A stretch of 64,000 nucleotides of DNA from assembly GCA_965222225.1 (NCBI GenBank), contig CBDCTK010000002.1, forward strand, positions 4,992,001 through 5,056,000, in the 5' to 3' direction. A program made the translations under genes and the position numbers. The notes under the pieces were generated by a model. That model had not been told where the DNA came from. It saw nothing but the letters and a program-made list of their open reading frames with translations, and ran no database searches. Shown piece after piece: positions 5,501 through 60,478 of this stretch. Position 1 is the first letter of the stretch. Every line of letters begins with the position of its first letter. The stretch comes from Candidatus Poribacteria bacterium (GTDB taxonomy: Bacteria; Poribacteria; WGA-4E; JAJDTR01).

Positions 5501-5690
5501 TAGGACTTACGTAGTTCGGTCTGTAGAATCGATTATCCGTCGCAGTCTATTGTCGAGAATCGGAATGGATCTCTATCGCACGGGATTTTCTATCGCATTC
5601 ACTATCCGTTCACTTGATCGTTATTCATTCGGTCGATCCCTCCTACAGACACACACGTAGGAGCGATCTCCTGTTGCTGTGTAAGTCCTA
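5501..5690. mobile_element. MITE-like element with TAGGACTTAC terminal inverted repeats carrying REP and micro-element cargo
   Basis: TAGGACTTAC (5501-5510) / GTAAGTCCTA (5681-5690); related left end GGACTTACGCAATTCAGTTTGTAG at 53130. Confidence 0.6.
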
Positions 5691-5788
5691 ATTTAGGTTT
5701 GCAGCGAGATTCTTGATTCGAGATTTCAAGGCTGGTGCGCAGAGGATCTCTATCGCAGTCATTATTCATTCCTTTGATCGCACCCTAC
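5566..5788. repeat. Cluster of 37-38 nt covarying hairpin micro-elements (nested and REP-inserted)
   Basis: Copies at 5582-5619 (inside an outer copy 5566-5638) and 5743-5779 (inside GGTGCGCAG...GCACCCTAC). Confidence 0.8.
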
Positions 5789-5862: not shown

Positions 5863-5947
5863 TGCCGGAGGTCGGACTCGAACCGACATGGACCCAAGGC
5901 CCGCTGGATTTTGAATCCAGTGCGTCTACCGATTTCACCACTCCGGC
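5863..5947 (-). tRNA. tRNA-Leu(CAA)
   Basis: GCCGGAG/CTCCGGC acceptor, CTGGA-TTCAAAA-TCCAG anticodon arm, long variable arm, GGTTCGAGTCC T arm. Confidence 0.97.
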
Positions 5948-6185: not shown

Positions 6186-6303
6186 TTCCGTTCAACCCAA
6201 CCTACGCGCTGCTATGGCACTCCACCGGAGGCAGGACAGGTCGCGATTCGGAGATCGCTCCTACAGTGATTTCCGATGGATTTCCGTTCAACCCAACCTA
6301 CGC
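6186..6303. repeat. GTAG-family REP-like direct repeats
   Basis: TTCCGTTCAACCCAACCTACGC at 6186-6207 and 6282-6303, with GGAGATCGCTCCTAC between them. Confidence 0.7.
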
Positions 6304-8152: not shown

Positions 8153-8607
8153 GGGAGCTCTATCGCACTCCTTATTCAGTCGCTTGATCGCAGTGCGCAC
8201 CCTACGAAATGGTGCATGATTTTAAGCCTGATTTGATGATTGAAGAGAAAATCCCTATCGCGCACGCTAACCGCTTGCCTGATTCTATTCGGTCATTTGA
8301 TCCGTTCAAGAAATGGTGGGCAGTGCCCACCCTACAAAAAATGAATGAAGTCGAGTTAAGAGCTTGTTTGGATAATGGGCGACGAAGCCATCTCTGGTAA
8401 TTTGAAAAAGGCATATTCGTTTTGTTGCCTCAGCTGGTATACGCCTGTTCAGATTCTATCTTCGATTTGATGATCGGAAATCGCACGCTAGTGCTTTCAA
8501 TGGCTAGTGGGATTTCTGTGGGAGTTCTATCGCACGGGATTTACTATAAGATCTCTATCGCCTTCGCTATTCGCTCAGTTGATCGCTCCTTGTCCAGTCG
8601 CTTGATC
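8153..8607. repeat. Micro-element copies and GTAG-REP
   Basis: Copies at 8153-8189 and 8548-8584 (nested); REP GGTGGGCAGTGCCCACCCTAC at 8315-8335. Confidence 0.75.
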
Positions 8608-19005: not shown

Positions 19006-19042
19006 GGGATTTCTATTGCACTCCTTGTTCAGTCGCTTGATC
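19006..19042. repeat. 37-nt covarying hairpin micro-element copy
   Basis: GGGATTTCTATTGC-AC-TC-CT-TGTTC-AG-TC-GC-TTGATC. Confidence 0.7.
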
Positions 19043-19136: not shown

Positions 19137-19222
19137 GCCGGGATGTCGGAATTGGTAGACGAGCTAGATTCAGGATCTAGTGGGCATTATTGCCCGTAGG
19201 GGTTCAAATCCCCTTCCCGGCA
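19137..19222 (+). tRNA. tRNA-Leu(CAG)
   Basis: GCCGGGA/TCCCGGC acceptor, CTAGA-TTCAGGA-TCTAG anticodon arm, long variable arm. Confidence 0.96.
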
Positions 19223-23783: not shown

Positions 23784-23858
23784 CGGGGCGTAGCGCAGTC
23801 CGGTTAGCGCATCTGCTTTGGGAGCAGAGGGTCGGAGGTTCGAATCCTCTCGCCCCGA
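23784..23858 (+). tRNA. tRNA-Pro(TGG)
   Basis: CGGGGCG/CGCCCCG acceptor; TCTGC-TTTGGGA-GCAGA anticodon arm. Confidence 0.97.
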
Positions 23859-23878
23859 TTCTTAAATTGATTGCTGAC

Positions 23879-23952
23879 GCGCCCGTAGCTCAGTTGGATA
23901 GAGCAACTGACTTCTAATCAGTAGGCCGCGGGTTCAAATCCTGCCGGGCGTA
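23879..23952 (+). tRNA. tRNA-Arg(TCT)
   Basis: ACTGA-CTTCTAA-TCAGT anticodon arm; TAGCTCAGTTGGATAGAGC D arm. Confidence 0.96.
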
Positions 23953-23966
23953 TATCCTTCCCCAAT

Positions 23967-24043
23967 GGTGGGTGTAGCTCAGGCGGTAGAGCGCTTGACT
24001 GTGGATCAAGTGGTCGTGGGTTCAAATCCCATCACCCACCCCA
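23967..24043 (+). tRNA. tRNA-His(GTG)
   Basis: G-1, CTTGA-CTGTGGA-TCAAG anticodon arm, encoded CCA. Confidence 0.97.
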
Positions 24044-24177
24044 TTTCTTATGAGAATATCGAATATGGCGCTAAGGAACCGGATGGCTACCGTTATTGGG
24101 GCGCAAGCTTAACGTGACGACTCCAAAAATGAATCCGGGCAATTCGTTACTCTTTCGTGAACAGTATTCCGTCGTAT

Positions 24178-24251
24178 GCGTCCGTGGTTCAATTGGATAG
24201 AGCAATAGACTTCGGATCTATAAGTTGGGGGTTCGAGTCCCTCCGGACGCA
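24178..24251 (+). tRNA. tRNA-Arg(TCG)
   Basis: GCGTCCG/CGGACGC acceptor; ATAGA-CTTCGGA-TCTAT anticodon arm. Confidence 0.94.
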
Positions 24252-24261
24252 TGTTTCTGAT

Positions 24262-24334
24262 GCGTCGTTAGCTCAATTGGCAGAGCATCTGACTCTTAAT
24301 CAGGTGGTTGAAGGTTCGATTCCTTCACGGCGCA
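24262..24334 (+). tRNA. tRNA-Lys(CTT)
   Basis: CTGA-CTCTTAA-TCAG anticodon arm; GGTTCGATTCC T arm. Confidence 0.95.
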
Positions 24335-24348
24335 CTAAATTCCTTTGT

Positions 24349-24433
24349 GGGCGGGTGTTGGAATTGGTAGACAAGATAGATTTAGGATCTATTGGGGTTA
24401 TTCCTCGTGAGGGTTCGAGTCCCTTCTCGCCCA
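24349..24433 (+). tRNA. tRNA-Leu(TAG)
   Basis: ATAGA-TTTAGGA-TCTAT anticodon arm; long variable arm. Confidence 0.95.
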
Positions 24434-53157: not shown

Positions 53158-53194
53158 GATCAAGGGAGCGAATAGCGACTGCGATAGAGATCCC
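53158..53194. repeat. 37-nt covarying hairpin micro-element, reverse orientation
   Basis: GATCAA-GG-GA-GC-GAATA-GC-GA-CT-GCGATAGAGATCCC. Confidence 0.78.
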
Positions 53195-58079: not shown

Positions 58080-58605
58080 ATATAATTCCTTGAATTTTCA
58101 GGTCAACTACGCATGACTAGTGTTGACCTAACACTTATAATTTATCAATCCGAAATCACGATTGAATCATATCACACCTTGACAATCTGCTCAAGAGAAA
58201 AGTATGAGACGTGTTTGAGAACTCTAGACACAACTTGAAAAACGGCACTTGGGAATCTTGGGAACTTTCATACTTTTCATACCAAATGAGGGATTCCAGT
58301 AGAGACAGAAAACCGTAAGAACTCTTGCTATCACTGGATTCTAGGTAGTTTCAACATTCGAACTTCCAAGGGTTGGTATGAAACAGCGGGAGCTACCCAA
58401 AACATTTTCAAATCTCGGATTGACGTTCTGTCGTAGAAGAAGATTGTTTTTCAAAAATTTCTTAACCCGACTTTGTACATTTAAGCGGGATAACAGACGG
58501 TGTCAATCAAGCGTTGAAGAAAAGCGGGGAAGATTTTAACCATTTGGTCTTTTTGGTTGACCATTGAAAAAGTCGTCAGCGGTTTCTGATATTGTGCAAC
58601 CTGTC

Positions 58606-58891
58606 GGGATCTCTATCGCACTCACTATAGGATTTACTATCGCCTTCGTTATCCACTCAGTTGATCGTTCGTTTGATCTCGCGCTGGGGGGCTGATGTAA
58701 ATAACTCGCTGGCGCTATACACCTGAAGATCTCTATCGCACGGGATTGTCTATCACCCTCCCTATCCGGTCGGTTGATCGTCGCTGGCGCTTTCAAAGGC
58801 TGGTAGGATCTCTATGGGATTTCTATCGCACTCGTTATCCACTCGTTTGATCGCTCATTATTCATTCGCTTGATCGCAGTGCGCACCCTAC
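58606..58891. repeat. Array of nested 37-38 nt micro-elements ending in a REP half
   Basis: Inner copies 58629-58666, 58742-58779, 58816-58852, two of them splitting complete outer copies; ends in GCAGTGCGCACCCTAC. Confidence 0.82.
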
Positions 58892-59272
58892 AAGATGGCA
58901 ATTCAGAATTGTACTTTTGTACAAAGTCGAGCCTAAGTCAGGCATTTGCACTTCAAGTCTCTGACGTGGGTAGCGGAGATTGGGAAGGATGCAGTCAAAT
59001 TACCACAGTGAATAGTGCACACAAGCATAGGAGACGTTGGGTGCGCAATGCCGGCAGCGCGTTCGGGGATGATGGACCTTTGCCACCCTGAAAGAACTAG
59101 ATGTACTTGCAGAACGCCCAAGTGTCAGATATAATGCTTGCAGTCGGGTGGATTAAGGAGTCATGTGAAGAACCACACCTGCTAGGATAACCACAGAATC
59201 TGTAATGTAGGAGTCCGAGGCCTATCGGGTGGATTGTGTGTTACGATCGAAGGACTACAGCAACTGTTAAAA

Positions 59273-59427
59273 AACCCAAGTTGCCACCTTTGTCCGACAG
59301 GGGCACAGAAACCGAGTTTTTTCCGACGTGGAAACACGAGATTGACGATAATCAGACCAATTTACCTATAATTTAGCGAACGTGAACCAAAAAATCGGGT
59401 TCTCTTTTATAGGTAGCAACTTGGGTT
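59273..59427. mobile_element. MITE-like element with 17-bp terminal inverted repeats
   Basis: AACCCAAGTTGCCACCT / AGGTAGCAACTTGGGTT (one mismatch). Confidence 0.6.
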
Positions 59428-59437
59428 AAAAATAAGC

Positions 59438-60478
59438 ATGTATATATTTGAACCGTTGAATTGTCAGTGTGAGGACTCGTGGGATGAGGTTCTAAAACAG
59501 TGTCCGGGTAGCAATGCATTTCACTCAACCGCATGGAGAGTCGCCCTTGACCAAGCGTTTGCTCAACTGTCGCCAATGTACTACCTAATTAAAGAGAATT
59601 GTACGTTGGTTGGCGGGTTTCCTGCATTCGTTTTCAAGCCAATTCCCGGTATCAAGATGTTACATTCGATGCCGTGGCATCTATTCGGAGGTATCCAACT
59701 CGTCACTGATGCAGAGGTGGATATCAAGGCGTTACTTGAATTGACGGAAAAACACCTTTCAAATGCGGCACACAATCAGAATATTTGCGAGGCTATTTTT
59801 ACCCTTTCTCCTGCCCAAACCGCGGAATATGGTCATAGGTTTACCGAAATCGGTTATCAGAAACATAAGACGCTTTCCACCCATCTTCTCAGAACGTCAG
59901 AGGACTATGACGTGCTATGGAAAGCGTATAACAAGCGTGTTCGAGGTGCGGTGCGGAAGGCAGCAAAAGCAGGTGTGAGGGTTTCCGACGCGCATACCGA
60001 CGGTGATTTGGAAGCGTTCTATAGTATCTATCTAGCAACGGTCAAACGCTTGGGTGGCACGCCCAAGCCGCGAGCCCTGATTCAATCTCTTTACCGAAGT
60101 CGAATCGGAAAACTGGCAATCGCAAAGCGTGATGGGATTGTAATTGCCGGATTGTTGTATCTTTATTTCAATCGAACTGTAACGCTATGGTGTGAAGCGT
60201 CCGACCCGCAATATTTAGAATATCGTCCGAACAATGCCATCTTCCACCACATCATTCAGTGGGCTTGCGCAAGGGGATATGAGTGGGTAGATTTTGGTGC
60301 CTCTCCGCCCGAACATCACGGCTTAATTGCTCACAAAGAGCAGTATAAGGCACAGAGGTTTAACTTCTGCAGTTACATAAAGATTCATTCGCCATTGAGA
60401 CGGGAAGTTTGGCAGATAGCAGAACCTTCGCTTCGTAAATTATACACGTGGATTCAACACGCTCGCAGCCGAGATTAG
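59438..60478 (+). CDS. GNAT/FemAB-like acyltransferase
   Basis: FHSTAW, RVRGAVRKAAKAGV, RPNNAIF, WVDFGAS. Confidence 0.82.
   Translation: MYIFEPLNCQCEDSWDEVLKQCPGSNAFHSTAWRVALDQAFAQLSPMYYLIKENCTLVGGFPAFVFKPIPGIKMLHSMPWHLFGGIQLVTDAEVDIKALLELTEKHLSNAAHNQNICEAIFTLSPAQTAEYGHRFTEIGYQKHKTLSTHLLRTSEDYDVLWKAYNKRVRGAVRKAAKAGVRVSDAHTDGDLEAFYSIYLATVKRLGGTPKPRALIQSLYRSRIGKLAIAKRDGIVIAGLLYLYFNRTVTLWCEASDPQYLEYRPNNAIFHHIIQWACARGYEWVDFGASPPEHHGLIAHKEQYKAQRFNFCSYIKIHSPLRREVWQIAEPSLRKLYTWIQHARSRD

Follow-up and report, generated by a model that had tools for sequence, protein, structure and literature searches.

The interval 58606–58891 of a 64,000-nt stretch of Candidatus Poribacteria DNA (this whole stretch is referred to as the window) belongs to an intergenic spacer. 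Within it the motif CTATCGC-d1-TC-d2-TRTYC-d3-TC-d4-TTGATC, whose dinucleotides d1 to d4 vary between copies, occurs three times in intact form. The motif is the core of a micro-element that is mobile and non-autonomous. At ~35 nt it is among the smallest mobile elements seen. Its mobility, target and structure are well supported, and movement as single-stranded DNA (ssDNA) with the help of a HUH enzyme is the favoured guess for its route. The genome that holds the window (G000) is that of a sponge symbiont and comprises 5.70 Mb in 2 contigs with a GC content of 0.50.

All nine copies listed by an earlier sequence-only reading of the window are found where it placed them. Their cores start at 5590, 5750, 8160, 8555, 19013, 58637, 58750 and 58823 on the plus strand and at 53158 on the minus strand; seven are exact and two contain one mismatch. 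No copy occurs in 100 dinucleotide-preserving shuffles of the window. Throughout G000 there are 561 copies without substitutions, and 864, 998 and 1087 copies at 1, 2 and 3 or fewer substitutions respectively, while a reversed-pattern control gives no match in G000 at any of these levels. The micro-element thus accounts for ~0.7% of the genome (~1087 copies of ~36 nt in 5.7 Mb). The copy length of 37–38 nt given previously does not hold strictly, as the mobile unit is 34–37 nt long and reads RR-GATYT-CTATCGC-d1-TC-d2-TRTYC-d3-TC-d4-TTGAT on the written strand. Beyond the core the genomic consensus continues with G-G-R-A-T-Y-T upstream and S-C downstream. The core positions other than d1–d4 are 92–99% conserved, with the exception of the loop R/Y positions 15–17.

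Mobility had previously only been guessed; it is now demonstrated by nesting, by filled and empty sites and by gains between species. For 87 of the 998 copies, computational removal of 36 nt at the copy leaves an intact outer copy behind, and removal of 34 or 35 nt does so in fewer cases. Filled sites are found in three families of ordinary hairpin-forming repetitive extragenic palindromes (REPs) of G000. REP-C is a AAGGCTGG-TGCGCAGTGCGCA-CCCTAC hairpin present in 106 copies with a 13-nt spacer, and its reverse complement is a GTAG-type REP. The sequence of this hairpin is GGTGCGC-AGT-GCGCACC, and a compensatory variant, GGTGGGC...GCCCACC, also occurs. REP-C is filled in 27 simple forms at two positions, both GTG^CGCA, by 16 distinct element sequences. 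In REP-A (ACCTGTCGCCCCGCTGGGG) 17 distinct elements account for 24 filled forms, and REP-D (GGAGATCGCTCCTAC), likewise of the GTAG type, has 8 filled forms, each with a different element, against 95 empty exact copies in the genome. Since different elements occupy one and the same REP site, they represent independent insertion events.

Comparison between genomes gives the same result. A REP-A site just downstream of the gene for RAYT-A, a Y1 transposase discussed below, holds an insertion in G000, G001 and G005, whereas G002, G004 and G009 have the empty form. The spacer that contains the 58606–58891 cluster is ~1160 nt long in G000 and 238–484 nt long in nine sister genomes. The orthologous spacers of G001, G002, G004 and G006 have no micro-element copy, and that of G009 (L192) contains an independent nest at another position. 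The L192 nest consists of at least four interrupted 5' arms, one intact copy and then the matching 3' arms.

Several of the copies in 58606–58891 are themselves nested within interrupted copies, which the sequence-only reading had overlooked. The components of the cluster and the other copies of the window are as follows, with the basis of each assignment in brackets.

58598..58606, plus strand: REP-A hairpin, left part, AACCTGTCG, separated by the O1/I1 insertion from its right part at ~58678–58692 (REP-A consensus, filled forms).
58607..58628, plus strand: outer copy O1, 5' part, GGATCT CTATCGC AC TC AC TAT, interrupted by I1 (removing 36 nt restores an intact copy).
58629..58665, plus strand: inner intact micro-element I1, core 58637–58666, in the loop of O1, predicted to fold on the minus strand (nesting test at C2 5050636, RNA fold).
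58666..58678, plus strand: outer copy O1, 3' part, C GT TC GT TTGATC (36-nt removal).
58726..58741, plus strand: 5' micro-element fragment, AAGATCTCTATCGCAC, directly upstream of I2, with its 5' arm at 58728 (half-motif match).
58742..58778, plus strand: intact micro-element I2, core 58750–58779, one mismatch (motif match, RNA fold).
58779–58793, plus strand: right half of a REP-A hairpin, CGTCGCTGGCGCTTT, after I2 (sequence).
58790..58804, plus strand: REP-C scaffold, left part, CTTTCAAAGGCTGGT (scaffold copies with the 13-nt spacer, 106 in the genome).
58805..58815, plus strand: outer copy O3, 5' part, AGGATCTCTAT, inserted at GGT[G]^CGCA of the REP-C hairpin and interrupted by I3 (82-nt class, C2 5050795).
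58816..58851, plus strand: inner intact micro-element I3, core 58823–58852, inserted at CTAT^CGC of O3 (motif match, RNA fold).
58852..58874, plus strand: outer copy O3, 3' part, CGC TC AT TATTC AT TC GC TTGAT (filled-site class).
58875–58894, plus strand: remainder of the REP-C scaffold, CGCAGTGCGCACCCTACAAG (scaffold match).
5567..5638, plus strand: nested pair, outer copy 5567–5581 plus 5619–5638, inner copy 5582–5618 with core 5590–5619 (C2 4997589).
5743..5779, plus strand: intact copy that interrupts the second REP-C hairpin arm, with TGCGCAGAG directly before GATCT...TTGAT and CGCA directly after it (47-nt class, C2 4997727).
8153..8189, plus strand: intact copy followed by CGCAGTGCGCACCCTAC, a REP-C tail (motif match).
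8520..8607, plus strand: multiply nested cluster with 5' arms at 8522 and 8550, an intact core at 8555–8584 and 3' arms at 8575 and 8598 (motif and half-motif matches).
19006..19042, plus strand: copy with CTATTGC in place of CTATCGC, the only one in the window that does not fold into the consensus hairpin (RNA fold).
53158..53194, minus strand: intact copy, core 53158–53187 (motif match, RNA fold).

In restored O1 both d1/d4 (AC/GT) and d2/d3 (AC/GT) are complementary. No 3' part that matches the 5' fragment at 58726..58741 is present there. Further REP-C tails lie in the window at 8195, 8325 and 58881, and REP-D lies at 6250 (plus strand) and 5657 (minus strand). A composite of ~230 nt, window positions 58460–58690, is formed from a scaffold module (GACCATTGAAAAAGTC..AGCGGTTTCTG), REP-A and nested micro-elements. 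It recurs in G000 at 81–96% identity (e.g. C2:5627818–5628037), and whole composites have therefore also been amplified. Its 5' module occurs in ~34 copies in G000 and gives chance-level Rfam matches (CyVA-1, E 0.23; isrJ, E 0.95). Outside the window, a hot spot at C2:1.545–1.556 Mb has 63 copies in one 100-kb bin, many of them in a repeated composite where a 5'-shortened element (..CCAAGA^CTATCGC.., with ^ at the boundary) lies within a reverse-oriented REP-C variant.

The 3' junction of the element is exact, with ...TTGAT followed by a target C. Among 998 copies the three bases after TTGAT are most often CCC (235), CGC (235), CCT (106) and CGT (91). The target is loosely (G/T)^C, found in GC-rich REP stems and, within the element itself, at CG steps, and the preference for these two kinds of site is well supported. 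REP-A or REP-C holds 232 of these copies, another 385 sit within or next to copies of the same orientation and 41 abut reverse copies; many of the remaining 340 are in other GTAG-type REPs. Filled and empty sites differ by the replacement of 1–2 target bases and not by a target-site duplication. For this reason a miniature inverted-repeat transposable element (MITE) of the DDE type was rejected as a model, together with the finding that a GGGATC...GATCCC symmetry exists in only part of the copies. At the 5' junction the target CG, TG or G is replaced by GG, AG, GGG, CAG or AA, that is, by 2–3 mostly purine bases. This raggedness is due in part to a 5' arm that varies in length by 1 nt (GATCT or GATTTA) and in part to slippage of the G-run after insertion, as one orthologous insertion has GG in G000 and GGG in G001 and G005. 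Templating of these purines by the right flank was considered and dropped, with a mutual information of 0.04 bits or less. Half-motifs are also common in the genome, with 1258 3' halves against 1080 5' halves (controls 65 and 52).

The variable dinucleotides form four covarying base pairs. In the window d2 and d3 are exact reverse complements in 9 of 9 copies, and d1 and d4 pair in all nine provided that A.C on the written strand, equivalent to G.T on its complement, is counted, which is needed in 4 of the 9; both observations agree with the sequence-only reading. The covariation persists in larger sets. Among 568 genomic copies all four pairs are Watson–Crick in 329, compared with 8–20 in ten shuffles. 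The mismatched cells of these copies comprise 225 A.C, 20 G.T and 51 others, an A.C to G.T ratio of ~11:1. This excess of A.C on the written strand indicates that the complementary strand, which tolerates wobble pairs, is the folding strand, and on that strand all four pairs are acceptable in 504 of the 568 copies. A second set of 103 distinct copies (9 from the window and 94 from other Poribacteria assemblies) has 96.8% pairing cells. Here 193 cells are changed on both sides, against 48 ± 12 in shuffled data, and none of 500 shuffles reaches 193. Each variable pair occurs in three Watson–Crick types plus G.U, and sliding the 3' partner by 1–3 columns lowers the covariation score from 0.599 to 0.113 or less.

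The structure on the complementary strand, as originally proposed, consists of an ATC/GAT stem, an AA/GC internal loop, 2 bp, a GA/GA loop, 2 bp and a GRAYA terminal loop. RNA folding of the 30-nt window cores supports it, as 8 of 9 give this structure as the dominant minimum free energy (MFE) fold, with energies of −2.6 to −9.9 kcal/mol and ensemble frequencies of 0.58–0.89. The exception is core 19013, which has a substitution in the outer stem. For three copies folded both ways the motif strand as RNA is 3–4 kcal/mol worse than its complement. The GA/GA loop, with its putative sheared pairs, is invariant and is placed between covarying pairs. The sequence-only reading had argued that selection acts on the structure and not on the sequence. 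This part cannot stand, since the core outside d1–d4 is conserved to the extent given above, and both sequence and structure are constrained. Integron attC sites and hammerhead-type cores were set aside on inspection by eye, as the boxes that define them are absent.

There are 85 stem haplotypes among the 749 copies with four acceptable pairs, where ~131 would be expected under free assortment, and the mutual information between stem pairs is 0.05–0.31 bits. At least 25 haplotypes have 12 or more copies each. Many lineages have therefore multiplied, and no single master copy is responsible.

The micro-element has a narrow distribution. At least 125 named-genome loci with the motif were listed, and all of them come from assemblies titled Candidatus Poribacteria. 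In a survey of 176 genomes of this phylum, which allowed 1 mismatch or fewer, the copy number is high in only two genera: the genus of the window (g1; 10 of 10 genomes, 576–1253 copies) and a genus of another family (g4; 4 of 4 genomes, 189–213 copies). One further genome has 19 copies and six have 1–4, and no micro-element was found in 155 of the 176. The low-copy genomes, considered as a clue to a vector, look like mis-binned carry-over because their copies sit on few small contigs. The sequence-only reading had proposed a covariance-model scan and a comparison with Rfam. A model built from the 103 distinct copies, used to look for diverged relatives in other genera, gives the same picture as the strict pattern over 61 genomes of the order (~102 candidates per genome scored). 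No Rfam family matches the element: at gathering thresholds only tRNAs match in the window, and a permissive scan of 58450–58950 gives two matches, the chance-level ones to the neighbouring module already mentioned, and none on the element. Viral contigs gave no match. In metatranscriptome contigs from four runs the repeat part is covered by many short paralogous contigs, which carry no strand information and do not prove RNA, and the unique spacer at 58155–58438 and 58936–59148 is not covered.

Only 84 of 1084 chromosomal copies lie within called open reading frames (ORFs; 120 aa or more), which cover 79% of the chromosome. This strongly extragenic placement, along with the high conservation of sequence and structure, would suit a structured site that benefits the host, for example in protein binding, RNA stability or termination, and that is kept at each locus by selection. 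Such roles have been hypothesised for REPs (PMC3733652). Against this, the copies are not conserved at orthologous sites, show filled and empty polymorphisms and are nested in each other and in other repeats. Nor do they prefer one orientation relative to genes, with 309 co-oriented and 356 anti-oriented copies between tandem genes, and most genera of the phylum gave no match to the element. Maintenance as a host site is thus very improbable as an account of the family, and secondary co-option of some copies may occur.

The orientation of the copies instead follows replication. It tracks the GC skew (rho 0.58, p 6e-6, 53 bins of 100 kb) and has little relation to the local gene orientation (rho 0.12). 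Empty REP-C has the same polarity as the micro-element, with 47/26 in skew-positive and 24/68 in skew-negative bins. Copies within recognised REP contexts show the orientation bias (p 2e-8), and so do the copies elsewhere (p 7e-12; Fisher).

The favoured reading is that the element is a parasite of the REP/RAYT systems of the genome, moving as ssDNA exposed at replication forks. A trans-acting HUH/Y1 enzyme of the RAYT type would recognise the hairpin plus the constant flanks, as with REPs. Copies would remain mobile only as long as their hairpin and constant boxes are preserved, and this would account for the covariation as well as for the coexistence of many stem haplotypes. Repeated insertion into REP stems and into its own CG steps would build nested 'Russian-doll' clusters such as that at 58606–58891. 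This REP-like, trans-mobilised ssDNA/HUH route is held tentatively, at somewhat less than an even chance, and is placed before an RNA route because the polarity is common with a real REP, Y1 genes are universal in the carriers and reverse transcriptase genes are patchy.

Several findings weigh against this reading, chiefly that the hairpin folds better as RNA, that one junction is ragged and that no cognate RAYT was found. With DNA parameters the hairpin is recovered as the MFE in 1 of 9 cores, against 8 of 9 as RNA, and it is not recovered in 46-nt copies that include flanks. DNA parameters may undervalue tandem G.A pairs. The 5' junction is ragged and purine-rich, and this is unexpected because HUH transposases cut precisely. 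The folding strand is mostly on the C-rich strand, the opposite of the description of IS608, in agreement with the internal control REP-C. The skew profile is irregular and the copies are clustered, so that the Fisher p-values overstate the bias and the bin-wise rho is the safer measure. The crude gene calls are a further weakness.

A mobilising enzyme was also sought. Y1/HUH genes are present in 34 of 41 relatives, including all 14 carriers (g1 10/10, g4 4/4), and G000 has five Y1 hits. The first, RAYT-A (C2:3080258–3080728), is an intact gene bracketed by facing micro-element copies and was considered as a possible REPtron of the element. It is REP-A that flanks the orthologues in g1, g4 and g6, and the micro-elements at RAYT-A are insertions inside this flanking REP-A. 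RAYT-A orthologues also occur in genera without the element (g6 7/7, g3 5/10). RAYT-A and REP-A form a classic REPtron in Poribacteria: the protein (loci L136–L165) has the HUH motif DHIHIL and the tyrosine in VVRYIKNQ, and the gene is flanked by inverted REP-A hairpins (CACCTGTCGCCCCGCTGGGGCTTT), an arrangement conserved in three genera with lineage-specific REP variants. The second candidate, RAYT-B, is a bracketed fragment in G000 (C2:3560268–3560543), and its full-length orthologues carry a GTAG REP of their own, REP-B. These orthologues (L167–L175) share NRLQxYDYSxxGYYFVTICT...MPNHxHGI...YIKNNP; REP-B is GTAGGGGACGCAGATCTGCGTCCCCTAC, and the G000 copy is truncated. Two further paralogues are restricted to 3–5 genomes of the genus: C2:3727643–3728014 has orthologues in only 4 other genomes, and C2:2563965–2564705 is found only in G000 and G005 and as a fragment in G009. 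The fifth hit is a pseudogene at C2:3088937 with one copy downstream, and the Y1 profiling across relatives covered the other four. No Y1 gene specifically tied to the element was found among these, and the RAYT-A and RAYT-B orthologues are flanked by REPs of their own. A Pfam search of 36 ORFs tightly bracketed by facing copies gave ordinary metabolic genes and a few IS or integrase fragments, and no recurrent nuclease. The search for a co-occurring transposase, HUH nuclease or reverse transcriptase, suggested by the sequence-only reading, thus gave no specific partner. Separately, G038 (g10), a genome without the micro-element, has 34 Y1_Tnp matches, mostly open frames of ~140–150 aa, which point to an expanded IS200/IS605-type family.

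The strand asymmetry and the fold may also be viewed from the side of RNA. A short transcript could fold into the tandem-G.A hairpin and be copied back to DNA, or be reverse-spliced into ssDNA at forks; Elhai and colleagues reportedly proposed such a route in 2008 for the small dispersed repeats (SDRs) of cyanobacteria. The dominance of the hairpin in RNA but not in DNA folding fits this proposal, as does the strong excess of wobble pairs on one strand. One exact and one ragged purine-rich junction would match priming at one end and a variable start or untemplated addition at the other, and 3' half-motifs are slightly commoner than 5' ones. As retrotransposing group II introns also show a replication-strand bias, the GC-skew result is compatible with RNA. 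The enzyme is the difficulty. A reverse transcriptase was examined as a candidate: G000 has one weak hit, and RVT_1 was not found in 5 of the 14 carriers searched (G006, G007, G009, G012 and G021), an absence that is not proven because the carrier assemblies are 88–96% complete. Among the remaining g1 genomes, G008 excepted, the best hit scores 24–29 bits. The lack of preference relative to flanking genes also counts against a transcript, a minor point if few copies need transcription, and no promoter or processing signal was identified. The RNA route is accordingly possible, though unlikely.

It could also be argued that no dedicated enzyme is involved, and that template switching or microhomology-mediated repair at stalled forks spreads the element while intrastrand repair keeps the hairpins. 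In favour of this, the GC-rich hairpin repeats into which the insertions go are known to obstruct forks, one of the two junctions is ragged, copies are oriented in relation to the replication strand and the enzyme searches found none. Repair of this type does not account for the same unit ends at REP-A, REP-C, REP-D and the element itself, and the left-junction bases are uninformative about the right flank. Fold-back copying would moreover erase the invariant TC/TC (GA/GA) mismatch, and a high copy number is reached in only two genera although g6 also has REP targets. There is consequently only a slim chance that repair alone is responsible. A different idea, to which a small but somewhat larger chance is given, is that the element moves by a mechanism new to mobile DNA, in which the ~35-nt hairpin itself is active or guiding, either as a self-inserting nucleic acid or as a guide for a host nuclease or ligase that is neither HUH nor reverse transcriptase. 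If so, no smaller self-targeting mobile unit would be known, and the element would act as a hyperparasite on REPs.

The ssDNA/HUH route favoured here draws on the likeness to REPs. REP and REPIN elements are described as mobilised by RAYT (Y1/HUH) transposases (PMC2817692, PMC3733652, PMC3116915). The micro-element similarly belongs to the ~20–40 nt class, is present in hundreds of copies, is extragenic and forms a hairpin with compensatory changes. It is also non-autonomous, is clustered with other repeats in mosaic intergenic regions and shares the replication-strand polarity of the GTAG-type REP-C of G000. As a short extragenic imperfect palindrome with more than 100 copies per genome (998 at 2 or fewer substitutions) it resembles a REP in outline. 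The differences are in the details. REPs are characterised by an unpaired GTAG (or CGTC) tag at one end (PMC3733652), whereas the micro-element consensus has neither on either strand and ends in GATCAA... and ...GCGATAGAGATCC. A cognate RAYT gene is described as flanked by two inverted REP copies and conserved among relatives (PMC2817692); the micro-element does not conservedly flank any RAYT, and its copies at the G000 genes are REP insertions or are not conserved. The REPIN is defined as two inverted REPs at a fixed short spacing that replicate as a unit (PMC3337134). The micro-element does not consist mainly of inverted doublets, with 729 adjacent copies in the same and 354 in the opposite orientation (197 and 45 at <100 nt), and the inserted unit is a single copy. 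At spacings of 300–3000 nt '-+' pairs (41) are not commoner than '+-' pairs (56). Finally, it inserts as single units into other REPs and itself, and its stem has only 2+2 bp split by the invariant GA/GA loop.

Similarities to three other systems can be noted. Elements of the IS200/IS605 family, which also has hairpin-ended miniature derivatives, in the mechanism described by Ton-Hoang and colleagues, are recognised through a hairpin on one strand and insert 3' of a fixed short target with no duplication and with precise ends. The micro-element likewise inserts 3' of a short target (..SG^) on the folding strand without duplication, has a one-strand hairpin and shows a replication-linked orientation. 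It differs in having a single hairpin, no identifiable left and right ends with guide sequences, one ragged junction, an apparently opposite polarity relative to the GC skew and no cognate TnpA that could be found. In Thermomicrobium roseum GTAG-23 REPs are reported to lie inside the palindrome CCGSSCC(n3,4)GGSSCGG (PMC3733652). This resembles the present case in that a small palindromic repeat lies within a GC-rich palindrome that is also present in many empty copies. The inserts there are GTAG REPs, however, whereas the micro-element is untagged, targets the REPs themselves and self-nests several levels deep.

The third system is the SDR elements of Nostocaceae, described as families of small dispersed repeats (PMC5861425). 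The micro-element is set apart from them by its length of 34–37 nt, its occurrence in Poribacteria, the tandem GA/GA and the REP-stem targets, a distinction drawn from descriptions of SDRs. SDR1–8 are said by Elhai et al. to be 21–27 nt long, to form hairpins with compensatory changes and to insert into themselves, SDR5 also inserting into HIP1; they reportedly have a narrow lineage and unknown machinery. Self-nesting, a hairpin with compensatory changes and a narrow lineage are thus shared. HIP1 is rare in G000 (120 copies). In kind, the micro-element resembles REPs and cyanobacterial SDRs and is a member of neither. The view that it is an undescribed minimal mobile motif holds for the family, which has no Rfam match and no description that could be found in the literature on Poribacteria palindromic repeats, and is overstated for the kind, as REPs and SDRs are already known.

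Some further features of the window lie outside the micro-elements. A 157-nt MITE-like repeat at 59273–59429 has 12-bp terminal inverted repeats (AACCCAAGTTGC...GCAACTTGGGTT), with 14 BLAST hits in G000 (10 of at least 130 nt) and many copies in sister genomes at 86–94% identity. The gene that begins at 59438 is preceded, at ~59150–59270, by a promoter-like sequence (CTTGCAGAAC...GATATAATGC) and then a conserved leader of ~130 nt. This region is conserved across the genus (orthologous spacers L187–L195), and Rfam gives nothing for it at gathering thresholds. Six tRNA genes are clustered at 23784–24433, and further tRNAs are found at 5863–5947 (minus strand) and 19137–19222 (plus strand), the latter ~100 nt from the micro-element copy at 19013.

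Mobile elements this small are almost unstudied; to our knowledge SDRs are the only comparable case, and their mechanism is still unknown. The micro-element is unusually clean material, with ~1000 copies per genome, exact filled and empty pairs in fully specified REP hairpins, deep self-nesting and four-pair covariation with a clear strand asymmetry. Its presence and absence across 176 genomes of one phylum make phylogenetic profiling for the enzyme feasible. Because stray copies in other bins lie on few small contigs, the micro-elements probably also affect the assembly and binning of metagenome-assembled genomes of sponge symbionts. The finding also shows that REPs, which are genomic parasites in their own right, can be a preferred landing site for a second layer of parasites.

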